Source of the DNA: Rhizophagus irregularis
Lineage: Eukaryota
Assembly (NCBI RefSeq): GCF_026210795.1
Contig: NC_089433.1
Coordinates: 3,348,001 to 3,412,000, forward strand
Length of the DNA: 64,000 nt
Direction of reading: 5' to 3'
The position numbers were made by a program, and so were the translations under genes. The notes under the pieces were generated by a model, which was given only the letters and a program-made list of their open reading frames with translations, was not told where the DNA came from and ran no database searches. This document shows positions 34,249-61,564 of this stretch, one piece after another (the first letter of the stretch is position 1; each line of letters starts with the position of its first letter).

Positions 34249-34769
34249 TGTAGTGCCATAATTCCAGAATTAACTTTGATTTAAATAATAGAGTATTTCG
34301 GAATTATAGGGATCATCTATATTTTGTGTAACATACATTAATAGTCTGAAGTAATTTGGATCGGAAATGAAGATCATCCTAATAGTAATAATGATGTAAT
34401 AAGTTACAATTAATTTATTATTATTTACGTTGATCGAAGGATCAACATGTAAATTATTATATAAACCCCAACTTTTTGACTTAGTATTAGCAGTTCCTTT
34501 TCTTTGGAAGTTCCTTTCTGTTTCTTTTAGTTCCTTTTAAATTCTTTTAATTCTTTTAAATAAAAACTATCATTTTAATTATTATAATTATTTTATAATG
34601 TTCTGACGAAATTTTATGATTATATTATTTTACATTTAATAAATAACTGTGTTATAATGACATATTCTTACATAATAAAGAATAAACCTTTTATTAAATT
34701 ATAAATTTTATGACTTTATGAGAGAGATGAAATTCTTGTGGCGACAGAGTGGCAGAAGCTGTCGTTGCA
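34249..34769 (+). repeat. 5' LTR of element 1
   Basis: tgtagtgcc...gtcgttgca; 7 differences from the 3' LTR counted by eye. Confidence 0.97.
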
Positions 34770-34771
34770 AA

Positions 34772-34789
34772 TGGTGCATGCTCTGAGAA
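34772..34789 (+). promoter_or_regulatory. Primer-binding site, tRNA-Gly-like
   Basis: tggtgcatgctctgagaa, 2 nt after the LTR; one mismatch to the PBS of element 2. Confidence 0.85.
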
Positions 34790-36482: not shown

Positions 36483-36555
36483 AAAGCTATAAATACCTTA
36501 AAAACCCCAATCTGATAAATTAAATTATAATCCCAATTTATTAACGAATTAAATT

Positions 36556-36867
36556 ATGGATATCAAACAACAAAAAGAATTCTTAGTAAAGGCATATCAC
36601 GAATGTTTATATCAGGAAAAATCATTACGAAGGCCCATATCTTACTATAAGGACAAAATAATTGAAATTAGGAGAAAACTTAAACCAACTGAAGAAGATT
36701 TTGAGAAAGAAATAAGACTAGAAAGAGATTTAAGAAGATATGAAAGGAAAATTAGAGGAGACTACGAGACTCTAATGGACATAAAAAAGAATATAATTAA
36801 AAGGATAATTAAGATAAAAACAGAGTTAAAAACCAAAAAGAGATATCAAAATAATTTAAAAGTATAA
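36556..36867 (+). CDS. Accessory ORF B of element 1 (103 aa, basic coiled coil); unknown function
   Basis: Open ORF tightly packed between ORF A and gag. Confidence 0.55.
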   Translation: MDIKQQKEFLVKAYHECLYQEKSLRRPISYYKDKIIEIRRKLKPTEEDFEKEIRLERDLRRYERKIRGDYETLMDIKKNIIKRIIKIKTELKTKKRYQNNLKV

Positions 36868-36910
36868 ATATATCATAAAACCCAACTCTGAAAATTTTAT
36901 AAAATATAAG

Positions 36911-39607: not shown

Positions 39608-40186
39608 CTACACTCGGACGAAAAAGAATTAAGATATTATGATGAAAATAAAGAAGTAACAATAGCTATGAAAACCCCAATTTTTATAAATGGAATTGAA
39701 ATTAAAGCCATAGTAGATACTGGAGCAGCCACATGTGCTATATCAAAAGGATTATTAATAGAGACAGGAAATGAAATTGAAAGATCAAGTAATGTAAGAT
39801 GTATAATGGCAAATGGATCTAAAACAGCATCATTAGGTAAATCAACCTTAGAAATTGAAATTGATGAAATAATAACAGAAATTGAAGTTGAAGTAATTAA
39901 TTCACAAGATAGAATGTTAATAATTGGCAATGATTTTATGAGTGATTGGAAAGCTAATATAGACTTTAAAACCCACACCTTAACATTAAATGATCAAGGA
40001 CATGAAATATACATACCAATTGAATATATCAAAAGTAATAGAGTTAAATTTGAAACCCCAATTCAGGATGAATACACTGATGATGAAGAAGACCCCACAT
40101 ACGAAGATAATGAAGAAATTGAAACTTTTAGAGTTGAAGATTTAGAAGAAGAGTATATCAGCGAAGATGAAGAAGAAGTAAAATAA
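39608..40186 (+). CDS. Retropepsin aspartic protease, in frame with gag behind a TGA
   Basis: AIVDTGA and IIGNDF motifs; 20 open codons between the gag stop and the ATG at 39668. Confidence 0.92.
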   Translation, partial: LHSDEKELRYYDENKEVTIAMKTPIFINGIEIKAIVDTGAATCAISKGLLIETGNEIERSSNVRCIMANGSKTASLGKSTLEIEIDEIITEIEVEVINSQDRMLIIGNDFMSDWKANIDFKTHTLTLNDQGHEIYIPIEYIKSNRVKFETPIQDEYTDDEEDPTYEDNEEIETFRVEDLEEEYISEDEEEVK

Positions 40187-41645
40187 TGAGTCTTGGCCCA
40201 GAAAAGGGAGAGACAGAAAAGATGCTAGAAAAGTTAAAATTACGAAATTTAAATAAAAACCAAGAGAAAATAACAAAAGAACTAGTAATAGAATATATGG
40301 ATATTATGGAATATGATAAGGAAAAACCCAATTTAGTACCAAATGTTAAACATCGTATAATAATAAATGAAGGCAAACCCCAATTTTACAAAAAGGTTAT
40401 AGAGAAACTTTGGAAAAAAAGAAATTCATAAAGAAAGAAATAGAGAAAATGTTGAGAGTAGGAAGGATTAGACCGTCATATAGTCCTTGGGCGTCCCCAG
40501 TAACATTAGCTAATAAGAAAAGTGGTACCTATAGATTTTGTATTGATTATAGAGCGCTTAACAAAGTTACTAAAACAGATGCATATCCTTTACCAAGAAT
40601 TGATGAATTACTAGAACGATACGAAACATCAAAATGGTTTACAAGTATGGATTTAGCAGCAGGATTCCATCAAGTAGAAATGGACGAAGAAGATAAAGAA
40701 AAAACAGCTTTTGTGTGTTCATTAGGATTATTTGAATTTAATGTTATGCCATTTGGACTTAAAAATGCCCCAGCTACCTTCCAAAGGTTAATGAATAATG
40801 TTTTATACGATTTTATTGGAGATTTTGTTGAAGTTTACATTGATGACATAATGATACACTCTAAAAATTTTGAAGATCATATTATACATGTGACTAAAGT
40901 ATTACAGAAATTAAGAGAACATAATTTGGTCGTAAAGTTAAAGAAGAGTAGATTCTGTGAACAACAAATTGAATTTTTAGGTCATGAAATTGGTAAAGAT
41001 GGTATAAAACCCAATTCTAAGAAAGTAGAAACAATTAGTAAAATAAAAGAATCCCAAACTTTAACAGAATTATGATCATTCTTAGGATTATGTTCATATT
41101 ATAGGAGATTTATTAAAGATTTCTCCAAGAGAGCTAAACTACTATATAAATTATTAGAAAAAGATGTTCCATATGAATGGATGGATGAACAACAAGATAC
41201 CTTCGAATGGTTAAAACAATGTCTAACTGAAAGCCCAATTTTGTCACACCCAAATTTTGAAAAAGAATTTATTTTGATAACAGATGCATCAGCAGATGGA
41301 TTAGGCGCTATATTGGCTCAGAAAAATGATAAAGATAAGGAAGTTGTGATAGCATATGCCAGCAGAAGCACCAATAAAACCGAAAGAAATTATCCTATAA
41401 CAGATTTAGAATGCTTGGCAATAGTATATGGAGTTGAATATTTCCATAAATTTTTGATAAATAAAAGATTTAAGATAATCACAGATCATGCAGCCCTTAA
41501 AAGCTTAGTAAATGAAAAGATTCCAAAAGGAAGGCGTGCAAGATGGATAATGAAATTACAACAATATGATTTCTTTGTAGAACATAGACCAGGAAAGAAA
41601 AATGGGAATGCTGACGCACTTTCAAGATTAAAATATAAACAATAA
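40186..41645 (+). pseudogene. pol: Reverse transcriptase-RNase H with one frameshift (~40390) and one premature TGA (41073)
   Basis: SPWASP, RFCIDYR, YPLPRID, MPFGLKNAPATFQ, YIDD, TDAS, VIAYASR, ITDH, NADALSR. Confidence 0.93.
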
Positions 41646-42078
41646 TTAAGATTAATTAATTTAGTGTAATGCACAAATTAAAAGCCCAAATCTTGTTGAA
41701 CATTTAAGGAAATAAAATTAGTGATGAAACACTCCTTGGCGTAAAAGATTTTAGAATTTTTAGATGGAAAATCAGAAACAATCAAAACCCAAATCTTAAT
41801 ATTATTCTGATAATATAAACAAATTATCATGAGGAGGATTTGTTTATTTAAAGATGTAAACAATAATTTAAAAGATACGCCAAGATCATCTAAAGATGCA
41901 CCAGTAAAATTGATGATGATCATTCAACTGTGGAAATAAAATTATTATAAAAAGACACCATTCAAGATGGTAAAATGAGATTATACAAATCATAGTTTTA
42001 ATAATAAACTAATAATTTTTTTTCCAAGAAACCAAAAACTCAAAATCTAAATCAAAAATTTAAAAACCCAAATTCAAG

Positions 42079-43824
42079 ATGAACTCAACAGTTGAACAAC
42101 TTAAGGAAGTTCTTAACATGCCCAATCCTCAGAATTTTAGGATTAAGACCGACTTAGGTCAAAGATGTAAAAGGTGTACAGGAAGATGTCAAAACAACCA
42201 TTATAGCCTGGATAGAGAGTATGGAGAACTAAAAGTTGTGATAAGCAATATGCTAAAGCATAAAGAGCCCATGGAATGCTTTAAACATTCAACAGTAACC
42301 TATCATCCACCACATAATTGTAATAAAGCTAAATGTGAAAGATGTGGATCTTGGGGACATAGTAAGGAGGTATGCAATGATAAGTTATACTATTGGAATA
42401 GGTTGTGCCTATGCAAATGTGATGGAAGGAGATGTAAAAGACGAAGATCAGAAACCCAATTTAAAGGAGGCAATCATTGTTGCACCTGCCAGAAACCTGT
42501 AATATTCTATGAGGCATACAGTAATTATAAAATAGGAAAATTAAGATGCAATGAATGTCATGAGAATAGCGTTAATAACAAAAGACCACCTACACCAGAT
42601 ACTGACGAAGGTAACAAAAAGCCCAAATTTAATATACCAGAACCTGAAGATCCAATGCAAGATATGGAGTTAAACCCACCAAGGATCCAAAATAAAGGAA
42701 AAGAGAAACAAAAATATACTGAAATCAAATGTACGAATTGTAACAGAAAGGAAAGCCCCATTAATTGTATCAATAATTTAGGTATTTGTGACAAATGTGA
42801 TGAGAAAAGAGAATGATTGGAACGAACAGGAAGTACCTCCTGTATAAAGACTTGTACAGTTTGCCGACTACAAACTGATAACTTTGAGTCAAGATCATCA
42901 GGAGCTATAGTATGTGGAGAGGAATGTAATGGAGTGTTAACTATTATGAATATGGTTAACAAGGATAAATCAGGAAAACCCCAATCCCAATTAATTTAAG
43001 AGAAATTACAAATTTGGATAGATAAACTTGGATATGATCCAGAAGATGAAGATGATATGAGCGAAGAACAGGATAAAATCAATAAAATGTCAGGAAAAAT
43101 TCAAAAATACCTTAAGAAAGAATTCAAAGAAAGGATATTTTCTGAATATCCAAAAGAAAGGATTGAAGAAGCTTTAGATGTTATAGTACCACCAGAGATA
43201 ACAAATATGATATCTGAACATATAGAGAATAAAGAATTAACTCAAGTGATACCTATTAGAACCATTAATGATACTATTGAATGGACCGAAGAGATCAGAC
43301 AACCATGGGAATTGAATGGAGAATTCATATGGCCAGAAGAAGAATTATTAGAAAACCCCATTCCTATAATGAATATAATTCAAGAAGTAAATCCCACCGA
43401 TAACAGAATAATTGAACTTCAAAACCATATTGTGAAACTAGAAAATGAAATTGCAATAAAGGACCAAATGAATGAAGGATTAAGGAATCAATTAGAGGAA
43501 ACCCAATATCAACTTAACGAAACAGCGAGAATGTGCAATGAAAATGCAAATATGGTGATGAACGCTCAAGAGTGGATGAAATATTTCAAAAATAAATATG
43601 ACAGAAGGAATAAATGGGTAAATGAATTAAAAAAGAAAGGTAATATTTTGTTAACAAAATATGTCAACAAAAATAATGATTTGAAAGAGAGGATAGAGGA
43701 ATTAGAGCAAGAAATAAATTTTGGAAACGTGTTATTTAATCAGATAATAGATCTTAATATGACAATTAGTTCAGACATAGATATAGATCCTTCTATGGAA
43801 AACATGGAACTCTTAAGATATTAA
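42079..43824 (+). pseudogene. Accessory Cys-rich multi-zinc-finger / coiled-coil protein (~580 codons, two premature stops)
   Basis: ORFs 42079-42816, 42817-42999 and 43057-43824 share one frame, split by TGA and TAA. CERCGSWGHSKEVC knuckle plus many CxxC pairs; C-terminal coiled coil. Confidence 0.75.
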
Positions 43825-44263
43825 TTGAAATTTTTATAAATAAAGCCCAATTTTTATAAACCCAAACTCAAATTTTCAAAATGAAACAAAAATATGTAAA
43901 AATAAAAGATGAATAGCATTTTATTTCGTATACTAAAAACCCAAATTTTGAGTTCAAATATTTTACAGATAATGAAGCGATGTTACTCAAGTTAGGAGAA
44001 AGGACCAAAGAAATTTTATTAAAACGAAATAATAGAAAAACCCAACCCATTTTAATAATAATTGATGGAGTAGATGGCGTAGGAAAAACTACTATAGTAG
44101 AAAATATAATTAGAAAAATTGAAGCCCAGAATCTTAAAATCATTTTTAACACTTTCAAAAGAAGGAGAGGTGATAATAAATTATTTGAGACCCCAACCAT
44201 CAAATATGAATGGATGTTTCGAAAAGAAGTAGTTGAACAAATTAACAAGAGATTAGTAACATA

Positions 44264-46332
44264 CACAGGCAATCTCGATAAATCGGATCAGTTGGTTCCA
44301 GTAAAAATATCCGATATATCAAGACATCCGATATATCGAAAAAATCTCGCCAAACCGGATTTATATAAAAATATATGAAAAATCCGAAATACCAAGAAAT
44401 CACGTGATTTTTCGTTCAAAATTTTCAAAATTTTATTCAAAAATGAATATAATTTTATTATTATAAAAGAACTATCTGTCATACATTAAAATCAAAATAT
44501 TCATTTAGTTTACTTTGCCTTTTTTCATTTATATTATCAAAAAAGATCCTTTTTTTCAATTTAATTAAATTTTTCATTTCTAAATTACCAATTTCTAAAT
44601 CTTTTTGTTGAATATATTTAATTACATTTTCAATGCTATTTAACGCAACTATTGTAGAGATTTCATCTTGCTCCTCTTCCTCTTCAATTTCCCTTTCATT
44701 TGTTCCCTTTACAACGTCAACAATTTCTTGTAATGATAATTCCTCTTCAGCAGATGCTCTATTATCAATATTAATATAGTCATTCACAGCTAAAGGATCT
44801 ACGAATCCTAACTCATCAATTAATGATTGTAATTCATGTCCAATATTATCTTCTTCATAATCGGAATTGTCTGAACATTCAGAATCTTCCATATTATTAT
44901 TGGGAAGGATTCCAGCTTTAGCCCAACTGTTAAGAATTGTTTTTTTAGATACTTTTTTCCAGGCATCAGCAATTAAATTGATTGAATCAAAAATATCAAT
45001 TGGGGGTGGAATGGGGTCTCCCTCTTCATAAAAAACATAAGCTTGAATACGATTTTGACATAGCAATTTGCGATATTGTGCTTTTAAACTATAAATAATG
45101 CCTTGATCTAATGGTTGAAGAAATGATGTTGTATTTGGTGGTAAAAAATGAACCTTAACATTTGAAAGACTATTGATGTTCTCAGATTCATGACATCTAG
45201 CATTATCTATTAGTAAAATAATATGCCGATTTTCTCTAAGCATTTTGGAATTTAATCTTTCAAGATAATGTTTGAAAATACTTCTTTGCATCCAAGCTTT
45301 AGAGTTCCAATAATACCAAACAGGGAGAGATCTTTTTTCAATTCCCTTTAATGCACGTGGTGTTTCATATTTATGAATAAAAACTAAAGGCAATCTTTCA
45401 TCACCAGAAGCATTACAAGTTGCCAAAATACTAACACGTTCTTTAGGACGTTTTTTACCAAGTACAGGATCATGTGCTATTGTTTTGGATGGTTCTAAAC
45501 GCCAAAAAAGAGCAGTTTCATCACAGTTCCAGATATCTTTTAGTTCATATGCTTGAAGAATTTCTCGTAATTCAGCTCTCATTTGTGGAAGTTCATCAAT
45601 AGGAGCACTGCCAGCTTCTCCTTTTTTTTTATATGTATGCAAATTATTTCTCTGTTTAAAGTTGCTTAACCATCCTGCAGATGCTGAAAAGTTGGTGATA
45701 TCAAGTAAGTTAGCACACTCTACTGCTTTTTGTTGGATAATAGGCCCATTTATAGTTAAATTTCTTGAAATTTGTTGATCAACCCAAATGCTTATTACTT
45801 CTTCTAGTTGTGGATAAACACTAGATTTTTCACGAAAATTATTTGCATTTGGTAAAGTGGTATCAATGGAAAGCCAATGTTCTGATCTTTTTAAAATATC
45901 AGAAACTGTGCTAGTGGAAATTCCATATTGTGCTGCTAATTGAACACCACTAAGTTTTTGATCTCTTTGTTTTTTGCAGAGTTCTTTCTTTTGAGCTAAT
46001 GTTAAAGATTTCTTCTTTTTATTATTCGTATCTTTGTTTTCTCTCATGCTAAAGTATATTTTGAAAAAAAAAACAGTGAGAAAAATTGTTTGCCTAATTA
46101 ATAAATGATTGACATAATTATTTCGGACTCCAAAAAAATTAATACGACATATCAAGATTTTTTAACTATAGTTGATCTAGAATAAAATCCGATTTACGAA
46201 ATATCGAGATTTTACTAATAAAGTCCGATATATCAAGACTGTTTTAATATAGATGATTTGGTTCCAGAAGAAAAATCCGAAATAGTGCCAAATCCGGTTT
46301 ATCGAGGATCCGATTTATCGAGATTGCCTGTG
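44264..46332 (-). mobile_element. pogo/Tigger-like Tc1-mariner superfamily DNA transposon (2069 bp)
   Basis: Perfect 26-bp TIR cacaggcaatctcgataaatcggatc; TA TSD at 44262-44263 and 46333-46334. Confidence 0.96.
44479..46047 (-). CDS. pogo-type transposase (CENP-B-like HTH domains + DDE_1), intact ORF
   Basis: LTLAQKKELC..YGISTSTVSDILK, FSASAGWLSNFKQR, WNCDETAL, LLIDNARCH, FLPPNTTSFLQPLDQGII; first ATG at 46047. Confidence 0.95.
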   Translation of the reverse strand: MRENKDTNNKKKKSLTLAQKKELCKKQRDQKLSGVQLAAQYGISTSTVSDILKRSEHWLSIDTTLPNANNFREKSSVYPQLEEVISIWVDQQISRNLTINGPIIQQKAVECANLLDITNFSASAGWLSNFKQRNNLHTYKKKGEAGSAPIDELPQMRAELREILQAYELKDIWNCDETALFWRLEPSKTIAHDPVLGKKRPKERVSILATCNASGDERLPLVFIHKYETPRALKGIEKRSLPVWYYWNSKAWMQRSIFKHYLERLNSKMLRENRHIILLIDNARCHESENINSLSNVKVHFLPPNTTSFLQPLDQGIIYSLKAQYRKLLCQNRIQAYVFYEEGDPIPPPIDIFDSINLIADAWKKVSKKTILNSWAKAGILPNNNMEDSECSDNSDYEEDNIGHELQSLIDELGFVDPLAVNDYINIDNRASAEEELSLQEIVDVVKGTNEREIEEEEEQDEISTIVALNSIENVIKYIQQKDLEIGNLEMKNLIKLKKRIFFDNINEKRQSKLNEYFDFNV

Positions 46333-46735
46333 TATACTGATGAAGATATAATTATAGTAGATAAATCCCCATACTGCGAATATTTTTATCAAAAGACAAG
46401 TAGTTTTGATAGAGGAATAATAAGACCTTTTGGAAATTTTAAAATGGAACAAGAAATTTTCAAATACAAAAATATAATTGATAATGCAGCAGTTATATTT
46501 TTAGAAAATAACGCATGTTGGAAAAATTACATAGGAAGAGAAACTAAAAAGAGTAATGGAGGATATAAAGCATCATATAATACACTCAAAGAAAACGAAT
46601 ATATGGAAATGGTTAAGATGTTCAAACAAAATCAAACAATATATGACAACAAAAAGAAATATAAAGCAGTAAAAATCCAGAACGATAACAAAAGTTGGAA
46701 AATTGTCTATAATGAAATTTTAAAAATAATAAAAA

Positions 46736-47893
46736 ATGGAAACTGACGAATATAATAAAATTGTTAAAAATATTCATGAAAACCCCAAATTTGAATTAAA
46801 AGAAGCCCAACTCTATAGAATAAAAGAAGATAAATTACTTAAAGTAATACAAAAACATGAAGTTGAAGGACTATTATATATGATGCACGATCATGAATTA
46901 TCAGCACATTTTGGAATAAAAGCAATACAAGATAAAATACGAGGAAAATATTGGTGGAATAAAATGATGAAAGATATAGAAAATTATGTTAAATCATGCG
47001 ATAGATGTCAAAGAAGAAATAAACCCCAAGGGAAGAATGAATTAAGCCCAATTAGCGTTAAAACCCCATTTTATCAGATAGGAATTGATTTTGTAGGACC
47101 ATTACCTGCTACTAAAAAGAGAAATCGATATATAATTGTAGCAATGGATTACTTTACTAAATGGCCAGAAGCAAGAGCGACTAAAAGAGATACAGCTGAA
47201 GAAGTAGTTAAATTTCTTTATGAGGATATTATATGTAGACATGGTTGTCCACGAAAAATAATTAGTGATAGAGGCAAACATTTTGACAATAAGATGGTAG
47301 AATTATTAACTAAAAAGTTTGAAATAAAACATAATTTATCAACAAGTTATCATCCCCAAACTAATGGATTAGTAGAAAGATTTAATAAGACGTTATGCGA
47401 ATCATTAGCTAAATTGCAAGAAGATAAACAATGGGACGATAAAATACCATCAGTATTATTTGCATATAGAAATAAAACCCACTCTTCTACAAAAACCAAA
47501 CCATTTTATTTAGTATATGGACGAAAAGCTAATTTCATTGAAGAAGAAACCCAAACCACAGAGAGACTAAATGAGATTATAGAAGGACTACCTTTTCAAA
47601 GAAATATAGCAAAAGAAGAAATTTTAAGATCTCAGGTAAAACAGAAAGAATATCATGATAGCAGAAGTAAAAGGAAAGAAGAATTTAAAATAGGAGACGA
47701 AGTATTAAGATATAACGCAGCACAGCAAAATTCTAAATCAAATAAATTAGACGATAAATGGTCAGGACTATACTTAATACATGAAATATTATTAAATGGA
47801 TCTTATAAATTAAAAGAGTTAGATGGAAAAATATTGAGAAACCCTACGAATGGAGAATTATTGAAGAGATATTTCACGAGAGAACTTAGATAA
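46736..47893 (+). CDS. Integrase (HHCC, DDE core, GPY/F-like C-terminus) as a separate ORF
   Basis: HD..AHFG..CDRCQ, IGIDFVGP, MDYFTKW, IISDRG, YHPQTNGLVERFN; ATG overlaps the end of the kinase ORF; no chromodomain. Confidence 0.95.
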   Translation: METDEYNKIVKNIHENPKFELKEAQLYRIKEDKLLKVIQKHEVEGLLYMMHDHELSAHFGIKAIQDKIRGKYWWNKMMKDIENYVKSCDRCQRRNKPQGKNELSPISVKTPFYQIGIDFVGPLPATKKRNRYIIVAMDYFTKWPEARATKRDTAEEVVKFLYEDIICRHGCPRKIISDRGKHFDNKMVELLTKKFEIKHNLSTSYHPQTNGLVERFNKTLCESLAKLQEDKQWDDKIPSVLFAYRNKTHSSTKTKPFYLVYGRKANFIEEETQTTERLNEIIEGLPFQRNIAKEEILRSQVKQKEYHDSRSKRKEEFKIGDEVLRYNAAQQNSKSNKLDDKWSGLYLIHEILLNGSYKLKELDGKILRNPTNGELLKRYFTRELR

Positions 47894-47997
47894 ATATCTT
47901 AATTAATTTACAAAATAAAAAGTAAAAGCACAATTGTTAAAGTAAAATATAAAATTTTATTGAAATTTTAAAAATCCCAAGAAGAAAAAGAAGAGAA

Positions 47998-48699
47998 TTA
48001 TAATAGTTTCTTTAAAGCGAGGTTTTCTTCTGAAAAAAAAAAAAAAAAAAAAAAAAAAATTTATTATTAAATGATAATTTTTAGGAATTTAATCTTAAAT
48101 ATTAAAAATAAGATAATATACCTTTGAGACTGAGAAGCAGCCGACCAAGATTTCGATTAAAAGAACGAAGCTCTGAAATGGTATCTTTGAAATTATCTTG
48201 CTCTTGTTCAAGAGCATTAACCTTTTCCTCCATTTCCTCAATTTGATCTTGTAACTTCCAACCGGAAGTCAAATAATGAACATTCTTTTCAAAGAGAGAT
48301 TCGTTTCGCTCCTTCATTTTATCCAATTTGCGTTGGAGAGATTCTGTTTGTTCTGTTAGAAGGAAAGAAAAAAGAGAAGAAGAAATTCATACCATTATTA
48401 GTTAAAAAACTAAGTGAATAAAGTCGATAGTACAAAGGAGTTCTACAGGAGAGTGCATTCAAGACTAGCCCTAGAAGTATAGAAACCCCGTCTACAGGTC
48501 AAAAGATCAACCATTCAAGAACCGGAACTTAAGTTTAAAAACCCCGTCTACAGTTAAACCCCATTCAAGAGACATCCTAAGGACCTTGCGTATGATACCC
48601 ACCCTTAAGTCGAGCTATTTCAGTTTTGCGAGAAGCCTTGAGAGCTTTATAACGAAGTTGAGATTTCTTATTTGAAGAAACTGAGCGGCGAGAAGTCAT
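47998..48699 (-). CDS. Predicted three-exon antisense bZIP-like / coiled-coil protein (~120 aa) inside element 1
   Basis: Exons 48699-48603, 48352(or 48343)-48122 and 48029-47998, with two phase-1 GT-AG introns giving one continuous ORF; TATA-like box near 48792-48798; aataaa near 47956-47961. Confidence 0.7.
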
Positions 48700-49177
48700 G
48701 ACGAAAGATTATATATATTTTAAAGGGTAAAGGAAAATGTTTTATAACAATGAATGAATGAGGAAAGAAAAGAAAAGGAAAAAGTGAGGTCTTATATAGA
48801 GAAAAAGACGCGACTTGAAGAATGCGTTAAAATTAAACAAAACAAACTTATCACGAAAAGATTTGATGAAAACCCCACGTGGAAATTTATAGAAAAAGAA
48901 ATTTATTTTTAGAACAAAGAACTATACGTTAATTAATTTAAGGAGTTAAAAACAAATTAATTTGGTGAAACATTGATGTCGCGATTTGTTAAAATTAGAG
49001 ATTTATTTTTAGTAATACACGGAAAATTAAGGGGTAGAATAACGGATTGGAGTTAGTATGAAATAAATGTCGCGATTTACTAAAATTAGTAGAAGGAATA
49101 ATTAATTAATAGGACGCGTTTTATTTTGATCCTGTAATACAGATTTTAATTTGGAAATTTATGAGGACACAAATTTT

Positions 49178-49191
49178 AAGGGGGAGGAAAG
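49178..49191 (+). promoter_or_regulatory. Polypurine tract of element 1
   Basis: aagggggaggaaag, 2 nt before the 3' LTR. Confidence 0.9.
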
Positions 49192-49193
49192 TT

Positions 49194-49714
49194 TGTAGTG
49201 CCATAATTCCAGAATTAACTTTGATTTAAATAATAGAGTATTTCGGAATTATAGGGATCGTCTATATTTTGTGTAACATATATTAATAGTCCGAAGTAAT
49301 TTGGATCGGAAATGAAGATCATCCTAATAGTAATAATGATGTAATAAGTTACAATTAATTTATTATTATTTACGTTGATCGAAGGATCAACATGTAAATT
49401 ATTATATAAACCCCAACTTTTTGACTTAGTATTAGCAGTTCCTTTTCTTTGGAAGTTCCTTTCCGTTTCTTTTAGTTCCTTTTAAATTCTTTTAATTCTT
49501 TTAAATAAAAACTATCATTTTAATTATTATAATTATTTTATAATGTTCTGACGAAATTTTATGATTATATTATTTTACATTTAATAAATAACTGTGTTAT
49601 AATGACATATTTTTACATAATAAAGAATAAACCTTTTATTAAATTATAAATTTTATGACTTTATGAGAGAGACGAAATTCTTGTGGTGACAGAGTGGCAG
49701 AAGCTGTCGTTGCA
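49194..49714 (+). repeat. 3' LTR of element 1
   Basis: 521-bp near-identical copy of 34249-34769. Confidence 0.97.
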
Positions 49715-50636: not shown

Positions 50637-51738
50637 TGAGATCCCCCTATTCCCTCTGTCATCAATTTACAGAGTTGCCACATCGAACGGGCATTCCTAT
50701 GGTCGAACGAACGAATAAACGAACGAATGAACAATTAAACGAACAAGCAAATAATCAACGACATAATTAACAAACAACATAATCAACGAACAACATACAA
50801 CAACATTCTTGGTTCATGACATAAATAGCGTTAGTAATATAAAACGTCGAACGATATAAAATAAAATTTAACTTCTCTAAATTTTCCCCAAATTATATCC
50901 ACTTTTACCTTTAATTTCAAACTTCGATAGCTCTCGCTACGAATTATTACTTTCCAAAAGTGTATATTTAATTCATCTTAAAATTTCCATTTATTCAATT
51001 AAAATTAATTAAGCAAACATTAATTAAAGTTTAGGGCGAACCTATTACCTTTAATTAACATTAAACTTTACTAACAAATAATTAAAAAAATAAAACTTAT
51101 ATTTTTATTGAGTTCTGTGGATGAGAACTAAGGAATTACCTTGAATTCCGCTCTCTATATATACAATTTTTATGCTACTTTCTATTCTATCTATATACTA
51201 TCTTTTATGTTCTCTTTACATATTATCTTTGAACTATCTTTCTAATATACTATCTATATTTTAAATACGCTATCTTTTAATATGCTATCTTTTAATATGC
51301 TATCTTTTTATATATGTTCTTTTTAATATATTATCTTTTACGTTCCATCTTTATACTATCTTTTTATATTATCTTTTACATTATTTTGTGTTCTTTAATC
51401 TTTCTGACATTATTTTATATGTTCTTTTAATTCGCTTTATGTGTTTTGCTTATAATCTATCTTTTGTGGCTTATAATTATTCTTTCTTATCGTTCTTATT
51501 GTTAAAGATTGCTAAGCCGCAATTGATCGACTCTATTTATCCTATTGGTTCCTTGTCAATCATTCAATAAATATTACATCATGTAGATCATTACTCTTCC
51601 TAAATGTTTATCCTTTTCGGCTAATTATTTATCCATCTACGCCAATCCACGATTAATTTGTTCGTTCTTAATATTTAATAATTACATTTGGTGGTTGAAT
51701 TTTATCATCTTTTCGTGCTTGATATTCGACCGTTTACA
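50637..51738 (-). repeat. 3' LTR of element 2
   Basis: Near-identical to 60463-61564, with 7 differences counted by eye. Confidence 0.97.
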
Positions 51739-51752: not shown

Positions 51753-51814
51753 GCTATTTGTGACCTCACAAATAACTTTAATAGAATCGAACTCGTGTCT
51801 TATCCATAATAATT

Positions 51815-53041
51815 TTAATCGAATCGAACTCGGGTCTTATCGAATACCTCTTTTCCTTTAATTACTATTTTTGGTATAAATCCCCTTCGATCATAAAATT
51901 TCTTTAACCATTCTCCATTTTGTGGTGTTTTTAGTATTCTTCCGTCTAATTCTTTGAGTTTATACGCTCCATTTCCAAATTCTTCGTGAATTAAATATGG
52001 TCCTTTCCATTTGTTCTGCAATTTTCCCGACCATTGTTTCTCTCTCCATGCTTCATATAATAATACTTTTTCTCCTATTTCAAATTTAGGTTTTCTAATT
52101 CCCCTTTTGTCGTGTTGTTGTTTTTGTTTCTCTTGAGCTTCTTTCACATTTTCTTTTATTTTCCTTCTTATTACCGGTAGTTCTTCAATTAATATTTTTA
52201 CTCTGTCAGCTAATGTTATTTTATTTTCGTCTTTATCCAATGGTAGTTTTGCTCTCCTTCCGTATGTCGCATAAAAAGGTTTAATCTTTGTTGATGATTG
52301 CTTCTTTGTTCTATATGCAAATAATACAGATGGTATATGTTTATCCCAATTTTCTTCTCCTAATTTGGCTAATCCTTCGCATAAAGTTTTATTGAATCTT
52401 TCGACCAAACCATTTGTTTGTGGCCTATATGGTGTACTTAATCTATGATTTATTCCACACCTTTCTACCAATTCTTCCATCATTCTATTGTTAAAGTGAG
52501 TCCCTCTATCACTAATTATTTTCTTTGGACACCCATGTCTACAAATTATATCCCTCCAAATAAATTCTACTACCTCTTTCGCTGTAGCTTCTTTTAGTGG
52601 TGCGGCCTCGGGCCATTTTGTAAAATAATCCATTGCTACTACAATATACTTATTTCCCTTTTCTGTCTCTTTTAATGGTCCAACTATATCTATTCCAATC
52701 ATCTCGAATGGTTCATTTATCTTTATCGGCATTAATTCGTTCTTTCCTCTTGGTTTTCCTCTCATTTGACAATTCCAACACGTTTTTACATATTCTTCTA
52801 CATCTTCTTTCATATTTTTCCACCAATAATTTTCTTTTATTCTATCTAATGTCGCTTCTACTCCAAAATGTCCTGATAATTCGTTATCATGCATCATGTA
52901 CATCAATCCTTCGTATTCATAATCCCTGATTACTCTAAATTTGTTTTGTCCTTTTACTCTATATAGAATTCCTTCTTTCAATTCATATTTATTCTCCTTT
53001 TCGATATTGTCAATTATTCTCTTGTAATTATTTTCTTCCAT
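51815..53041 (-). CDS. Integrase (408 aa) as a separate ORF
   Basis: HD..GHFG..CWNCQ, IGIDIVGP, IISDRGTHF, PQTNGLVERFN, WKGPY; an in-frame TAA lies four codons upstream of the ATG. Confidence 0.95.
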   Translation of the reverse strand: MEENNYKRIIDNIEKENKYELKEGILYRVKGQNKFRVIRDYEYEGLMYMMHDNELSGHFGVEATLDRIKENYWWKNMKEDVEEYVKTCWNCQMRGKPRGKNELMPIKINEPFEMIGIDIVGPLKETEKGNKYIVVAMDYFTKWPEAAPLKEATAKEVVEFIWRDIICRHGCPKKIISDRGTHFNNRMMEELVERCGINHRLSTPYRPQTNGLVERFNKTLCEGLAKLGEENWDKHIPSVLFAYRTKKQSSTKIKPFYATYGRRAKLPLDKDENKITLADRVKILIEELPVIRRKIKENVKEAQEKQKQQHDKRGIRKPKFEIGEKVLLYEAWREKQWSGKLQNKWKGPYLIHEEFGNGAYKLKELDGRILKTPQNGEWLKKFYDRRGFIPKIVIKGKEVFDKTRVRFD

Positions 53042-53090
53042 AATACCTCTTTAATTGATTTCGCTTCTAAATTTGTTATGTTCTGTATTT

Positions 53091-55172
53091 TTAGTTCTGT
53101 GCTCTTCTCCATTTCTCCACCTCTTTAAATACTTTTCTCCAACTACTATTGTCATTTTTAACTTTTACTCGACTGTATCTTTTAGTATCTTTGTACACGC
53201 CCTGATTTTCTTCAAACATTCTAACCATGTCCAAATATTCATCCTTCTTTAATGTTGGATATGATGATTTTTCCGTTTTCTTTGTTTCTCTTCCAATGTA
53301 ATTTTTCCAACATACGTCGCCATCTTTTTCTAAAAATATCACTATTGATTTATCTATTGTTTCTTTCAATCTGAATATTTCTTTTTCCATCTCATGATTT
53401 CCATGTGGAGTAATTAATCCTCTGTCAAAGCTTTTCGTCTTTTGATAATAATATTCACAATATGGTGATTTGTCTAAAATTATTATATCTGTATCTTCGT
53501 CATATTCTAACATTCTCCTGTTTATTTGTTCTACTACTTCTTTTCTAAATTTCCATTCTGTCTCCATTTTTGATTCATAAAATTCATCTTTGTCTTTTCT
53601 TCTTCTTTTATAAGTATTGAATCTTACTTTTAATCCTTGTTTTTCCCATTCTTTAATTAAATTTTGTACTATACTTGTTTTTCCTAATCCATCTACTCCA
53701 TCGATTATTACTATTTCTGGTTGGTCTTCTACTATCTTTAATAACCTACTTAACGCGTCAGCGTTCGTGTTTTCTTTTCCTGATCTATGTATTACTTCAA
53801 AATTATATTGTTGTAATTCCATTACCCATCTTGCTCTTTTTCCTTTCGGTATCTTTGCATTCATTAATCCTTTTAATGCACTGTGATCTGTTATTACTTT
53901 AAATTTTCTATCGATCAAATACTTATGAAAATGTTGAATTCCCCAAACTATTCCTAAACATTCCAATTCGGTTATCGGATAATTTTCTTCTGCTGGTAAT
54001 AAACTTCTACTTGCGTATGCTATTACTACTTCTTTTCCCTTTTCATCTTTTTGACTTAATACTGCACCTAATCCTTTTCCTGATGCATCTGTTATTAATA
54101 AAAATTCTTTCTTCCAATCTGGATGTCGCAATATTGGATATTGTATTAACTTTTCTTTCAATTTTTCAAACGCTTCTTGTTGTTCTCTTCCCCAAATGAA
54201 AGGTATCCCCTTCTTTCTCAAATCACTTATTGGTCTTGCTATCTTTGAAAAATTCTTTACAAATTTTCTGTAATATGAACAAAGTCCTAAAAATGATCTT
54301 ACTTCTTTCACTGTTGTTGGTGCCTTCATTTCTTTTATCTTTTCTATCTTTTTATCGTCTGGCCTTAATCCATCATTTCCTACTATATGTCCTAAAAATT
54401 CTATATTTCTTTCCAAAAATCTACATTTCTTTAATTTTATTATCAAATTATTCTCCCGTAACTTCTTTAATACTTTTTCCACATGTTCCATATGATCTTT
54501 TAAACTTTCCGAATATATCATAATATCATCGATATATACTACCACAAAATCGTTTATGTATTCTTCCAATATTTCATCCATTAATCTTTGAAATGTTGCT
54601 GGTGCATTCGTTAAACCGAACGGCATTACATTATACTCAAATAATCCTTTCGAATATACAAATGCTGTCTTTTCTTTGTCTTCTTCTTTCATTTCTACTT
54701 GATTAAATCCTGCCGCTAGATCTATACTTGAAAACCATTTTGCTTTTCTATATTTGTCCAATAATTCATCCATTCTTGGTAAAGGAAAACTATCCATTAT
54801 AGTTATCTTATTTAACTTCCTGTAATCAATGCAAAATCTATATTTTCCTGTTTTCTTTCCTGCTAATGTAACAGGTGAACTCCATGGACTTTTTGATTTC
54901 CTTATCCTTCCCTGTCTTAACAATTTATCTACTTCTTCGCTTATAAATTTTGCCTTTTCATCTGTTTCTTTATATCTTCTTTGCTTTATTGGTTCTACCC
55001 CATCTTTTATTTTTATCTCATGCTGCGCTGCTTTTGTTCTTCCTTCTATTTCCTCATCGTATTCCAAAATATCTTGGTATTCTAATAGTAATTTTACCAT
55101 ATTTTCCCAAATTGGTTCTTCTACCTCCCCTATACTTAGTTTTTGCATAAATTTTTCACTTGGTTCGAGCAT
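53091..55172 (-). CDS. pol: RT-RNase H fused to a C-terminal thymidylate/deoxynucleoside-kinase-like domain (693 aa)
   Basis: YIDD, TDAS, ITDH, NADALSR, followed directly by IVIIDGVDGLGKTS and IIILDKSPYCEYYYQ. Confidence 0.95.
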   Translation of the reverse strand: MLEPSEKFMQKLSIGEVEEPIWENMVKLLLEYQDILEYDEEIEGRTKAAQHEIKIKDGVEPIKQRRYKETDEKAKFISEEVDKLLRQGRIRKSKSPWSSPVTLAGKKTGKYRFCIDYRKLNKITIMDSFPLPRMDELLDKYRKAKWFSSIDLAAGFNQVEMKEEDKEKTAFVYSKGLFEYNVMPFGLTNAPATFQRLMDEILEEYINDFVVVYIDDIMIYSESLKDHMEHVEKVLKKLRENNLIIKLKKCRFLERNIEFLGHIVGNDGLRPDDKKIEKIKEMKAPTTVKEVRSFLGLCSYYRKFVKNFSKIARPISDLRKKGIPFIWGREQQEAFEKLKEKLIQYPILRHPDWKKEFLLITDASGKGLGAVLSQKDEKGKEVVIAYASRSLLPAEENYPITELECLGIVWGIQHFHKYLIDRKFKVITDHSALKGLMNAKIPKGKRARWVMELQQYNFEVIHRSGKENTNADALSRLLKIVEDQPEIVIIDGVDGLGKTSIVQNLIKEWEKQGLKVRFNTYKRRRKDKDEFYESKMETEWKFRKEVVEQINRRMLEYDEDTDIIILDKSPYCEYYYQKTKSFDRGLITPHGNHEMEKEIFRLKETIDKSIVIFLEKDGDVCWKNYIGRETKKTEKSSYPTLKKDEYLDMVRMFEENQGVYKDTKRYSRVKVKNDNSSWRKVFKEVEKWRRAQN

Positions 55173-55207
55173 CTTTTCCGTCTCTCTCTCTTCAGAGCCA
55201 AGACTCT

Positions 55208-55720
55208 CTATTTAAAATTCTGGTGCATTTTGAATACCTCTCCTTCATCATTGCTTTCATATTCTTCATCGTCCTCACTCTCCTCACTTTCATATGCTAC
55301 TTCTCTTTCATATCCTACTGGAATCGTTATTATTTCTCCCTGTTCTTCTATTCTTAAGGTATGATCTTCAAAATTTATTTTTGCATTATACAACTTCCAT
55401 ATGTCATTTCCCAAAATTAGATCCTCCTCTTCTGAATCGATTACTTCAACTTCTTTCAGTATTTCTAATTCATCTTTGTACCTCAAAGTTATATTCGCCT
55501 TTCCTAACGCTGCTATCTTTTGCCCATTTGCTATTGTACATCTAAATTTACTTTTTCCAAATATAGGTATATTCAATCTTCTTCTTAATTTATCTGTTAT
55601 CACGCTTACTGCTGCTCCAGTATCTATTATTACATTCACTAATTGATCTTCAACTTCTAATTCTGTTCTCATTGCTGTAGTTCTCTTTTCTTCGTTTTTC
55701 ATAGTTCCCACCGAGTGTAG
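55208..55720 (-). CDS. Retropepsin aspartic protease, in frame with gag behind a TGA
   Basis: VIIDTGA and LILGND motifs; open frame starts immediately after the gag stop. Confidence 0.92.
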   Translation of the reverse strand, partial: LHSVGTMKNEEKRTTAMRTELEVEDQLVNVIIDTGAAVSVITDKLRRRLNIPIFGKSKFRCTIANGQKIAALGKANITLRYKDELEILKEVEVIDSEEEDLILGNDIWKLYNAKINFEDHTLRIEEQGEIITIPVGYEREVAYESEESEDDEEYESNDEGEVFKMHQNFK

Positions 55721-58700
55721 TCAATTTCTCTCATTTACACTTCTTGGCTTATATGTTCCTTCCCTTAATTGTTTATGATACTTAGTATTCTCATTTGTTA
55801 ATTGTCCAAATGTTATATTCGCTCTACAATTTTTCACGTCTCCCACAATGTCATAAGGTGGTATTCCATCAGTTAATCTCGGTCCATATTCTCTGGGCTT
55901 TCCTATCCCTGATGGCTTTGTTCTAACCCAATTTCCAAATTCGTCTTGCCGCATTCCAGGGTAAAATGCTTTGCCTTCTTTTGTGAACATTGGTTTATAA
56001 AATCTTCCATCCTTTGTCATGGGTCGACGACCATAATTATAATCTTCTGGTCCTATTGGATTATCCCAATTTTGGCTATCTTTGTGTACATTATTTTGTT
56101 CTGTCCTTTCGGGCGTATATCTTGGTGTTGTTGTTCCACTTGGTATTTCTCTATCATCCATTCTATTTCCCGCTTCTCTTAATTCTTCTTGTAAATTTCC
56201 TTCTTCACCATTATTTTTATATCCCATTATTGGATTCGACCTTCTTGTTTGTCTTCTTGTTTTTACTGCATTATCTTTCGCGTATAATTCATTATGGTAA
56301 TTTAATTCCCTATCTTCATAATCATCGTAATAACCTTGTGTATAATACATTTCACCGTATTGTGGTTCCCCATATTCATATCCATCATAATCATATTCCT
56401 CTTGGTCATCATATTCGTCCATCATATTCACTCCTACATTCCTTCTTTTCTCTGGACACTCCCTTGAATAATGACCAACTCTACCACATGTATAGCATGT
56501 CGGTACCCTTTTTTGGAATGACTGATTTCTTTGAATTGGTTGATTTCTTTGCATTGGTTGGTTTCTCTGCATTGGTTGGTTTCTCTGCATTGGTTGGTTT
56601 CTTTGTGGTAATCGCCTATAACTCTGACTCGCTAAATTTCTTAATCTTTCATTCTCATCTTCTAACATCTTAATTTGTAACTTCGCAAAACTGTCTGCTA
56701 ATTCATCTACACTTACCTCTTTATTATTCCTTACATTCCCTTGAACAATAGGTTCTTGTCTTCTTTGTTCATCATTAATTCCTTTTGGTTGTACTTTATC
56801 TGTTAATGCTTCTAAACCTCTTTCTACGTTTTTTGCTATCTGAAATGTTGCATTTAGATCTGCTGGATTTCCCATTACTACGTCTTTAGTAAAGTCTGGT
56901 TTTAATCCTCTAATAAAAATTCTCTTTTGCTGATTTGCTGCTACTGCTGCATCACCTCCCGCTCTCTTTAACATATATTTAAATCTCGTAAGGTATTGAG
57001 TTACATTCTCGTCTCCCTGTCTAATCTTTTCTAATTGTTCTAGCCATCTATCTTTAATTTCATCACTTGCATACTTTCCAATTATTCTTACTCTTAATCT
57101 TAAATTATGATCTCCATTAACATTCCAATCGACAATATTTACTCCTTCAGTCTTTAACCAATCTGCTGCTCCTCCCATTAATTTCGCTTTTGCTATTCTA
57201 AATCTCTGTGCATCATCATTCCCTAAACCATTCGCTGTAAATGTCTCCTCAAATTTATCTGCCCATTCTTCTGGATCTTCTCCACTGGTACCATAAAATG
57301 CTGGTATTTCTACAATAGCTCCTCTATTTGCGTTTAAATTTCCTATCGCATTAGTATTCGCTTGAACTTCTCCTTGTAATCCTGTCAATGTTACTGGTGG
57401 TAATACTAAATTGTTCCAATCTGCCCCAATATCATGATTATACATAGTATTCATTAATGCTCTTAGATCTGCTCTGAGTTCATCTCTTGATGCTGCCATT
57501 GTTATCTTTGGTTTTATTGGTGGTACTGGTGTTATTGGTATTATAGGTACTTCCTTTGATTTTTTATTTTTCTCTTTACTTTTTGGTTTTTTACTTGAGC
57601 CAATTTCGGGTCCTTTTATATCCTCTTCCATTTCATCTTCATCATCTGTTGGATTTTCTTTTTCAATATCTTTTTCACATTCTATGCAGGTTTCTTTTCC
57701 AATTTCAAATTCTTTCTTTAATCTTTCAATTTCACATCTTCCGCATTCTTTTGTGTTTTCAACTCTCCATTGTAATATTTGTTCATCTAATTCTTCATCT
57801 TCAAGATTCCATATTGTTAAATATTTCTTCATAAATTCATATGTTGTTATTATCTTTGCGGTTACTCCAAATTTTCTTATTCTTTTAATTTCCGTTATTT
57901 CTACATCATATCCCATTCTTTTCAAATCCATTCTAATTATTTCTTCGAATATCTTTGTTGTTCCTGTTTCTTCAACATTATTAGATTCAATAGATTCATC
58001 AGATTCCTCATCTGACATTTCTTCATTTTTACTAATCGGTAAATTTCCTTCTTTCTCATCGTCTGTTTCTGTTATAGTATAGCTTCTTGGTGTATCATCA
58101 CTATCTGTTTCATCTATATTTAATTGTTCAAACCCTCTAATCTTATCATAAACTTTTTCAACTATCTCTTTTCTAATTCCCCAACCATGTTCACGAACTC
58201 TTATGTGCATTGTGTGCAACATTAATCTAATTTTTTGTTTGAACGCTTCTATCTTTTCTGTTGACTCATCTTCTTTTAATTCAGCTTCTTCATATAATAT
58301 ATTTTTGTATCTTCTAATAGTGCTATCCTTACATTCTATAAAATTTGTTATAGCTTCTTTATACCATTCATAAAATTCCCCAAATCTTATATTCACATCC
58401 CAATCTTCCAAAATATAACCATATCTTATTAATTCTTCGTTCCCTATCAATCTGTCCATTGTTTCATCTTCTTTATCATTTTCTATACAATCTCTCACGA
58501 TTACTATTATTATTATCTTTAATCCTTTTTCTCTTAATACTGGTTGTTTCAAGTATCTTATCGATTCGACCATTACATCTAATGCATCTCTAGTCCTTCC
58601 TTTTGTATAATTATTTCTTTCTTCACTATCTATACTTAATAAATTTAATAACGCTCTTATAGTTTCCGCGTTATAACCTTTTATCGTATATTCAAATTTT

Positions 58701-58873
58701 TGTAATATTCTCCAAAATTTCTTAAAAACTTCTGGCGTATCTTTTACTGGATAACATATTTCACATGTTATATTTTCTCCTCTTAATTCACCTATATCTA
58801 CATTTCCAATATTTTCATCATGTCTTAATTTGTGATTTTCGTAATCAACCCTCCAAGTTTCATACCATTCCAT
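55721..58873 (-). CDS. gag: Gag (1050 aa): long N-terminal extension, capsid, (QRNQPM)n repeat, CCHC knuckle
   Basis: IPAFYG..EDPEEW, IRQGDENVTQYLTRF, FIRGL, CYTCGRVGHYSREC. Confidence 0.93.
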   Translation of the reverse strand: MEWYETWRVDYENHKLRHDENIGNVDIGELRGENITCEICYPVKDTPEVFKKFWRILQKFEYTIKGYNAETIRALLNLLSIDSEERNNYTKGRTRDALDVMVESIRYLKQPVLREKGLKIIIIVIVRDCIENDKEDETMDRLIGNEELIRYGYILEDWDVNIRFGEFYEWYKEAITNFIECKDSTIRRYKNILYEEAELKEDESTEKIEAFKQKIRLMLHTMHIRVREHGWGIRKEIVEKVYDKIRGFEQLNIDETDSDDTPRSYTITETDDEKEGNLPISKNEEMSDEESDESIESNNVEETGTTKIFEEIIRMDLKRMGYDVEITEIKRIRKFGVTAKIITTYEFMKKYLTIWNLEDEELDEQILQWRVENTKECGRCEIERLKKEFEIGKETCIECEKDIEKENPTDDEDEMEEDIKGPEIGSSKKPKSKEKNKKSKEVPIIPITPVPPIKPKITMAASRDELRADLRALMNTMYNHDIGADWNNLVLPPVTLTGLQGEVQANTNAIGNLNANRGAIVEIPAFYGTSGEDPEEWADKFEETFTANGLGNDDAQRFRIAKAKLMGGAADWLKTEGVNIVDWNVNGDHNLRLRVRIIGKYASDEIKDRWLEQLEKIRQGDENVTQYLTRFKYMLKRAGGDAAVAANQQKRIFIRGLKPDFTKDVVMGNPADLNATFQIAKNVERGLEALTDKVQPKGINDEQRRQEPIVQGNVRNNKEVSVDELADSFAKLQIKMLEDENERLRNLASQSYRRLPQRNQPMQRNQPMQRNQPMQRNQPIQRNQSFQKRVPTCYTCGRVGHYSRECPEKRRNVGVNMMDEYDDQEEYDYDGYEYGEPQYGEMYYTQGYYDDYEDRELNYHNELYAKDNAVKTRRQTRRSNPIMGYKNNGEEGNLQEELREAGNRMDDREIPSGTTTPRYTPERTEQNNVHKDSQNWDNPIGPEDYNYGRRPMTKDGRFYKPMFTKEGKAFYPGMRQDEFGNWVRTKPSGIGKPREYGPRLTDGIPPYDIVGDVKNCRANITFGQLTNENTKYHKQLREGTYKPRSVNERN

Positions 58874-60462: not shown

Positions 60463-61564
60463 TGAGATCCCCCTATTCCCTCTGTCATCAATTTACAGAG
60501 TTGCCACATCGAACGGGCATTCCCATGGTTGAACGAACGAATAAACGAATGAACGAACAATTAAACGAACAAGCAAATAATCAATGACATAATTAACAAA
60601 CAACATAATCAACGAACAACATACAACAACATTCTTGGTTCATGACATAAATAGCGTTAGTAATATAAAACGTCGAACGATATAAAATAAAATTTAACTT
60701 CTCTAAATTTTCCCCAAATTATATCCACTTTTACCTTTAATTTCAAACTTCGATAGCTCTCGCTACGAATTATTACTTTCCAAAAGTGTATATTTAATTC
60801 ATCTTAAAATTTCCATTTATTCAATTAAAATTAATTAAGCAAACATTAATTAAAGTTTAGGGCGAACCTATTACCTTTAATTAACATTAAACTTTACTAA
60901 CAAATAATTAAAAAAATAAAACTTATATTTTTATTGAGTTCTGTGGATGAGAACTAAGGAATTACCTTGAATTCCGCTCTCTATATATACAATTTTTATG
61001 CTACTTTCTATTCTATCTATATACTATCTTTTATGTTCTCTTTACATATTATCTTTGAACTATCTTTCTAATATACTATCTATATTTTAAATACGCTATC
61101 TTTTAATATGCTATCTTTTAATATGCTATCTTTTTATATATGTTCTTTTTAATATATTATCTTTTACGTTCCATCTTTATACTATCTTTTTATATTATCT
61201 TTTACATTATTTTGTGTTCTTTAATCTTTCTGACATTATTTTATATGTTCTTTTAATTCGCTTTATGTGTTTTGCTTATAATCTATCTTTTGTGGCTTAT
61301 AATTATTCTTTCTTATCGTTCTTATTGTTAAAGATTGCTAAGCCGCAATTGATCGACTCTATTTATCCTATTGGTTCCTTGTCAATCATTCAATAAATAT
61401 TACATCATGTAGATCATTACTCTTCCTAAATGTTTATCCTTTTCGGCTAATTATTTATCCATCTACGCCAATCCACGATTAATTTGTTCGTTCTTAATAT
61501 TTAATAATTACATTTGGTGGTTGAATTTTATCATCTTTTCATGCTTGATATTTGACCGTTTACA
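60463..61564 (-). repeat. 5' LTR of element 2
   Basis: 1102 bp, TG..CA, adjacent to the PBS. Confidence 0.97.

Follow-up and report, generated by a model that had tools for sequence, protein, structure and literature searches.

Ty3 of Saccharomyces cerevisiae and the other Metaviridae are the described elements closest to those examined here, with which they share long terminal repeats (LTRs), a primer site, a polypurine tract, a CCHC gag and the order protease (PR), reverse transcriptase (RT), RNase H (RH) and integrase (IN). The supply of dNTPs limits reverse transcription, and the retroelement answer to this that is on record, in the portions of the literature consulted, is dUTPase. LTR retrotransposons that carry dUTPase have been reported from basidiomycetes, bdelloid rotifers and planarians and, like the retroviruses with this enzyme, they have a nucleotide-metabolism enzyme in the pol region (PMC5408684, PMC6431247, as available in part). 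The elements described here probably do so too. However, dUTPase is a hydrolase of a different fold and in retrotransposons is found between PR and RT, whereas here the domain has a kinase fold and lies between RH and IN. A preliminary description of this DNA had placed the retroviral dUTPase between RT and IN, which, according to the parts of PMC5408684 that were accessible, applies to some retroviruses only and not to retrotransposons, where the PR-RT placement is found.

The window, i.e. the whole stretch of DNA analysed, is 64,000 nucleotides of low-GC eukaryotic DNA from Rhizophagus irregularis. One of two related LTR elements in it, element 2, is a young, complete Ty3/Gypsy element on the minus strand (61564-50637), with the following features.

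60463..61564, minus strand, 5' LTR, followed by a motif starting with TGG that resembles a primer-binding site and is common to element 1
55721..58873, minus strand, gag, Ty3 capsid-like, with a CCHC knuckle
55208..55720, minus strand, aspartic protease ORF, in frame past the gag stop and likely reached by readthrough
55180..55204, minus strand, conserved hairpin predicted in the RNA, 3' of the protease stop and 5' of the RT AUG
53091..55172, minus strand, RT-RNase H-kinase ORF from the first Met, 693 aa
53094..53729, minus strand, P-loop domain with the dNK/TMPK fold (P0001), 212 aa, C-terminal to RNase H
53014..53112, minus strand, linker ORF of 32 codons overlapping the kinase stop and the integrase start
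51815..53041, minus strand, integrase, 408 aa, in an ORF of its own that starts at a conserved Met
50637..51738, minus strand, 3' LTR, with a polypurine tract just before it

The two LTRs are each 1102 bp and 99.4 % identical (7 differing sites), and they have the TG..CA ends and 4 bp target duplication of an LTR retrotransposon. Pfam matches follow the Ty3/Gypsy order of gag, protease, RT, RNase H and integrase, and the closest solved match of the RT, on similarity, is the Ty3 RT of S. cerevisiae (E 7e-106). A chromodomain was looked for in the integrase without a match. Unlike in Ty3, there is a kinase-fold cargo between RH and IN, extra small ORFs are present, and the usual single PR-RT-RH-IN polyprotein is absent, with PR, RT-RH and IN in separate ORFs in 17/17 copies that include an integrase. 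From stop to stop, the RT ORF of element 2 (55211-53091, 706 aa) contains RVT_1 and RT_RNaseH and then the kinase-fold domain. The preliminary description had this ORF running in frame into a domain of about 210 aa with a Walker A motif, and this is exact (53729-53094, 212 aa). The domain, P0001, contains IVIIDGVDGLGKTS and IIILDKSPYCEYYYQ.

An AlphaFold2 model of P0001, built on a 43-row alignment, had a pLDDT of 92 and a pTM of 0.89. It has an NMP-kinase core, NMP-binding helices and a LID, with its best structural matches in the branch that includes deoxynucleoside kinases (dNKs) and thymidylate kinases (TMPKs). The top Foldseek matches in the PDB, as had been proposed for a structure search with this domain, are enzymes of these two types, namely the Giardia and Mycoplasma dAKs, Drosophila dNK, dCK, dGK and TMPKs, and a viral library also gave dNK/TMPK matches. 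In VIA-align, which is independent of Foldseek and was run on 48,161 chains, human dGK (Z 15.8), Staphylococcus aureus TMPK (Z 15.7) and Giardia dAK (Z 15.4) were tied at the top, with 182-198 residues aligned. Adenylate kinase (Z 12.2) and Kti12 and PSTK (Z 10.3-10.6) scored lower. Polyphosphate kinase 2 also ranked low (Z 11.9 versus 15.8) and was rejected as an identity. Sequence identity to solved structures is 10-18 % (11-14 % for TMPK). P0001 falls below the Pfam Thymidylate_kin cut-off (19.1 versus 27 bits) and far under that of TIGR00041 (19.3 versus 83), and it has no match to Pfam dNK (PF01712). Sequence searches of the PDB with P0001, A1 and A2 gave mainly matches confined to the P-loop, such as FtsY, and these were not used as evidence of family. 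On the predicted fold, P0001 is a member of the dNK/TMPK branch; by profile score it belongs to neither family. The dTMP-kinase/dNK signature read earlier from the sequence is therefore borne out by AlphaFold2, Foldseek and VIA-align, and not by the family cut-offs, which are missed for both. The structural matches also include the complex I subunit 8esw_AL (Z 13.3), which we take to be a dNK-fold protein in a non-catalytic role, and as this protein has no kinase role, the fold alone is not proof of catalysis.

Residues were counted in 120 distinct rows, many of them close kin, that were taken from 202 hits and cover at least 150 of the 212 positions. In the P-loop, K17 is conserved in 112/114 rows, T or S at position 18 in 111/114 and D13 in 108/112. 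The strand-3 residues D86 (118/120) and K87 (119/120) are near invariant, as are Y95 (119/120) and, in the LID, R147 (119/120). N38 is found in 114/117 rows, K41 in 113/116, R62 in 118/120 and E92 in 116/120. Comparison with dNKs was made via P0187, a true dNK (Pfam dNK, 1e-30) that was matched at E 1.5e-4, is collinear with the domain end to end (hhalign 95 %) and also aligns to Mycoplasma dAK and insect dNK. The map relies on these sequence alignments rather than on superposition, and the roles of dCK and TMPK residues are those of general knowledge.

Relative to the dCK/dGK/dAK/DmdNK group (PF01712), Lys17, Thr/Ser18, Asp86, a basic residue at 87, the LID Arg147 and Tyr165 (equivalent to Tyr204) are kept, and Glu92 corresponds to Asp133. 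However, past strand 2, where dNKs have their catalytic Glu, the domain has Asn38, and Arg62 replaces the base-reading Gln, so that an Arg62/Glu92 pair stands at the dNK base-reading positions. The Arg104 position is Ile69 in the element-borne group and Arg in several of the NUDIX-type relatives described below. In the dNK LID motif R-x-x-x-R-x-R-x-x-E only the middle Arg (R147) is retained and two LID charges are gone; the equivalent of dCK R188 is Asn, and neither the 3'-OH-binding Tyr nor the LID Glu position is conserved. Gains relative to dNKs are the TMPK-type Asp13, Lys41 and Arg44. TMPKs (PF02223, TIGR00041) share with the domain the GxDGxGK[ST] P-loop with its Asp (GxDGxGKT), the lack of a Glu base and the spacing D-x-x-x-x-S-x-x-x-Y-Q, which the domain has as D-K-S-x-x-S/C-x-x-x-Y-Q. 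In contrast to TMPKs, the Arg of DR(Y/F/H) is Lys in 119/120 rows, a conservative change. A counterpart of the F-x-x-x-R pair that reads thymine is not evident from the alignment, in which F61 and R62 are adjacent rather than spaced i/i+4.

Searches recovered 57 relatives of near-equal length, 39 longer ones and 98 by profile, with E values down to 1e-132, which rules out a chance resemblance. There were 49 relatives among 1.84 billion representative proteins. The named source organisms are R. irregularis, which has proteins 98-99 % identical to the P0001 domain, and Rhizophagus clarus, and the remainder are metagenomic. No named canonical fungal TMPK was among the matches. Some relatives are automatically annotated as 'thymidylate kinase', without element context. 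No relatives of A1, P0091, P0167 or P0187 were detected in viral contigs, and none was found in prokaryote genomes and phage records, by searches that need close motifs. In 21 of the 23 metagenome loci the kinase adjoins RNase H upstream, integrase downstream or both, and the other two are contigs of 1.0-1.2 kb with small ORFs that are also present in the elements. As the kinase adjoins RNase H or integrase in the Rhizophagus proteins too, this search upholds residence of the domain inside LTR elements. Tethering of the kinase to RT, which had also been proposed, applies to some lineages: RNase H is visible in 11 metagenome loci, and the kinase is fused to it in 5 of these and separate in 6, and in P0090, a cluster of 47 predicted proteins, it is fused to integrase.

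The most distant relatives (33-46 % identity) are metagenomic fusions of a NUDIX hydrolase with the kinase (P0091, P0112, P0167 and P0172). They are the closest relatives outside recognised elements, and the fusions point to nucleotide metabolism. Small ORFs accompany the kinase in several lineages. An F-box ORF (above the Pfam F-box cut-off) lies between kinase and integrase in one lineage (L013:670-1089, L014:945-1127). A conserved ORF of 47-52 codons, coupled to both neighbours, is directly 3' of the kinase in L003, L004, L006, L010 and L016; two of these copies were compared with Pfam and gave no match. A coiled-coil-like ORF of 81 aa is 3' of the kinase at L001:1046-1291 and L005:895-1140. 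The ORF at 53014-53112 in element 2 seems to be a 32-codon remnant of the latter, and may act as a translational relay between kinase and integrase.

Element 1 is a decayed relative, with the following features.

34249..49714, plus strand, element 1, with LTRs of about 521 bp that are 98.7 % identical and the duplication ATAT
43881..44263, plus strand, 5' part of the kinase with Walker A, premature stop at 43914-43916
44264..46332, minus strand, pogo/Tc5-type DDE DNA transposon of 2.07 kb, inserted in the kinase at TA
46333..46746, plus strand, 3' part of the kinase with the DKSPY motif and LID, its stop overlapping the integrase start (11 nt)
46736..47893, plus strand, integrase, a separate ORF

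The RT is damaged by a stop and a frameshift. The two kinase halves are 58 % and 60 % identical to the P0001 domain, and the inverted ends of the pogo/Tc5-type insert are perfect over 29 nt. Copies lacking the insert exist, as four contigs from run X1, which behaves like DNA, join 44261 directly to 46333. The preliminary description had reported a stand-alone kinase ORF in element 1. The homologous domain is there, and the family does include an intact stand-alone ORF (264 aa, in L008), but this copy has the stop and the insertion. Nor is the position of the kinase quite the same in both elements, as had been stated, because in element 1 two extra ORFs (42079-42816 and 43057-43824, plus strand) separate it from RNase H. 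They encode a Cys-rich protein of 245 aa and a coiled-coil protein of 255 aa, respectively, with no Pfam family above cut-off, and the coiled-coil protein has an 88 % identical counterpart in L008. Two further ORFs (35898-36482 and 36556-36867, plus strand) are found inside the LTRs of element 1 upstream of gag, with no family assigned to them. The coding strand of both elements is A-rich and C-poor (36000-48000 and 51000-61000), with a GC skew of up to 0.45.

The rate ratio dN/dS was calculated by the Nei-Gojobori method for 26 kinase rows, 2 of which contain stops, and the pairs are not independent. In the 11 least saturated pairs dN/dS was 0.045-0.23. A pS from 0.02 to 0.6 applied to 155/321 pairs, which had a median dN/dS of 0.26 and a maximum of 0.55. 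The medians for RNase H (22/45 pairs) and integrase (83/120 pairs) were 0.21 and 0.32, respectively. Stand-alone copies of the kinase are under constraint equal to that on fused copies. Kinase and integrase identities are correlated (16 rows, Mantel rho 0.49, 0/2000 permutations), and four clades are common to the 15-row trees of the two proteins, of which the kinase tree was a quick version and the deeper branches lack resolution. The kinase is under purifying selection and is co-inherited with the integrase, and conservation of the domain between the elements, earlier ascribed to selection, is confirmed as such by values far below 1 and near those of RNase H and integrase. The domain is present across lineages that are about 50 % identical, and its history fits one old acquisition kept by selection.

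In each of the 17 copies with an integrase (15 loci and both elements), this protein has an ORF to itself. The ORF starts with a Met that precedes a conserved Tyr by five residues, identified by pattern in 16 copies and separately in L012. In the following junction counts, three loci without a kinase end were left out and the figures are inflated by related copies. The stop of the upstream ORF falls within -30 to +12 nt of the integrase start in 14/16 cases, versus 5/263 internal Met codons. A new ORF at least 28 codons long starts at -30 to +13 nt of the kinase stop in 19/22 cases; these restarts include six AUGA and two one-base overlaps, and 17 are out of frame, for which the background is 85/2665 positions. 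Further upstream, the RT start of element 1, element 2 and L002 is in each case 35 nt past the protease stop. A hairpin precedes this start (z -2.7 to -3.3), with no variation in the outer stem and with changes in the inner stem that leave it paired. In a fourth, decayed copy (L020), the hairpin is present (z -1.4) and the AUG is missing. The gag stop is UGA CUA CAC UC in all three copies compared, which we take to be a leaky stop context, and no RNA structure was found downstream of it (z 0.5 to 1.4). A canonical -1 frameshift between PR and RT was considered for element 2 and L002 and rejected, as a stop codon closes the -1 frame at that point.

The overlapping stop and start codons, together with the hairpin, suggest that RT and integrase are translated by termination-reinitiation. 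A short GT..AG intron at the PR/RT junction is a possible alternative to reinitiation there, and several NCBI models do join PR to RT at that spot. It is also possible that splicing or subgenomic RNAs yield RT and integrase separately. RNA depth over the element 2 kinase is about 0-2 reads on both strands in three polyA runs and one uncertain run. No splice joints were seen in element 2 at this depth, which is too low to speak for or against expression, splicing or subgenomic RNAs, and element 1 is similar. A pile of short-insert RNA reads in the three polyA runs was observed in gag of element 2 (57490-57800 in the window), with a mean of about 100 in run X21 and about 1 elsewhere.

Termination-reinitiation at such overlaps has been described for victoriviruses and for the non-LTR element SART1, and the sections of PMC5972666 that were available give AUGA and one-base stop-start overlaps, as found here, for these and for caliciviruses. 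SART1 also has a structure downstream of the stop, as at PR/RT here (PMC5972666, in part). The present case appears to differ from all three in that it concerns an LTR element, several junctions occur in a row and pol itself is split. If true, this division of pol at stop-restart junctions would be a way of expression new to LTR elements, and it would account for the joining or mislabelling of the ORFs of the elements in fungal gene models of this group.

For the role of the kinase, the reading we put forward, at about an even chance, is that the domain is an ATP-dependent (d)NMP kinase that would top up dNTP precursors for reverse transcription, one of two roles suggested earlier, the other being to counter nucleotide-based restriction. 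Catalytic activity would be expected from the retention of Lys and Thr in the P-loop, of Asp-Lys in strand 3 and of Arg147 in the LID. A phosphate would already be present on the acceptor, as Asn38 stands in place of the general-base Glu of dNKs, with the basic Lys41 and Arg44 next to it, and Asp13 and the DKS..YQ register are TMPK-like. A monophosphate acceptor needs positive charge and no general base, which makes a (d)NMP kinase the best reading and likelier than a nucleoside kinase. The product would reach RT by way of host NDP kinase, within or close to the particle. Readthrough and termination-reinitiation would yield gag-PR, RT-RNase H and integrase as separate proteins, which would account for the three states of the kinase (fused to RNase H, alone, or fused to integrase). 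The host presumably has its own NMP kinases, which makes the benefit of one borne by the element less obvious. Other points against this reading are the low profile scores and identities, the Lys in place of the DR Arg, the Asn in the LID and the dNK-fold complex I subunit.

An active kinase acting on some other phosphorylated or nucleic-acid substrate (a nucleotide that is damaged, modified or used in host defence, or the end of an RNA or cDNA) is unlikely, though it carries real weight. Such an enzyme would clean up or alter the nucleotide pool and not increase it, and is in keeping with the NUDIX fusions, with the conserved basic patch K41-R44 and remodelled base pocket, and with the nearest ESM Atlas clusters, which are unnamed phage proteins with a minority Thymidylate_kin label. 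The F-box protein, as further cargo at the site, suggests host manipulation. However, no acidic residue is found at the position where polynucleotide kinase uses one, and the scores of Kti12 and PSTK are low. Loss of the dNK catalytic Glu and two LID charges would also suit a protein that binds nucleotide without turnover (a dNTP sensor, a store, or a structural partner of RT or integrase), as would the dNK-fold complex I subunit and the freedom with which the domain fuses to either neighbour. We consider this distinctly improbable, as the near-invariant P-loop Lys and Thr/Ser and the LID Arg147 are requirements of phosphotransfer, and stand-alone copies are as constrained as fused ones.

Since Asn is at the dNK catalytic Glu position in 114/117 rows, nucleoside-kinase activity is doubtful, and a deoxynucleoside salvage kinase, for which the preliminary description had left room, with another residue as the general base is quite a remote prospect, the more so as the dNK 3'-OH-binding Tyr and LID Glu are not conserved and the P-loop Asp is of TMPK type. 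In its favour, the best structural and remote sequence matches are dNKs, Glu92 and Tyr165 match dNK positions, and some fungi have acquired thymidine kinase by lateral transfer (PMC5113988, available in part). That the domain is a passively carried fragment of a host gene, or an annotation artefact, is hardly credible given the dN/dS values, the presence of the domain across lineages about 50 % identical and the lack of a named canonical fungal TMPK among the matches, even if the RNA signal is small and many copies are decayed (2/26 kinase rows with stops, and the broken element 1).

To return to the (d)NMP kinase and its setting, the wider proposal is that Glomeromycotina harbour an undescribed polycistronic Ty3/Gypsy clade, in which the pol polyprotein would have been abandoned, RT and integrase would each be expressed by stop-restart from a separate start codon, and the freedom so gained would have let a cassette of enzymes be carried. 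Foremost in the cassette would be a new family of dNK-derived kinases, rebuilt in the acceptor pocket, which would make or edit the nucleotides used by RT. We hold this to be plausible, at somewhat under an even chance, and if it is true, a nucleotide kinase would for the first time have been shown to be encoded by a retroelement. What was found is a Ty3/Gypsy lineage in which pol is unusually split and a cargo with a kinase fold is kept by selection. In the literature covered, neither a nucleotide kinase in an LTR element nor a separately translated integrase was found described. The word 'kinase' is absent from the accessible parts of PMC6431247 and PMC5408684, and a term search of PMC10799480 gave no match. 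Gypsy elements have been described in R. irregularis, and in the portion of that report available the kinases mentioned are protein kinases (bioRxiv 2021.03.30.436303). A selected kinase would show that an anabolic enzyme of nucleotide metabolism can be the cargo of an LTR element, as it can of large DNA viruses, and as a small soluble protein the kinase domain lends itself to testing this idea.

Elsewhere in the window, several long ORFs (28067-33613, minus strand), three of which were scanned with no Pfam match, lie among tandem repeats at 25276-27419 and 30159-31535. A CACTA-type transposase remnant (Transposase_21) is located at 17473-20646 (minus strand). A Serinc gene lies between two host protein-kinase genes in inverted orientation (2091-5497, minus strand, and 11980-15627, plus strand), whose exons are repeated in tandem.
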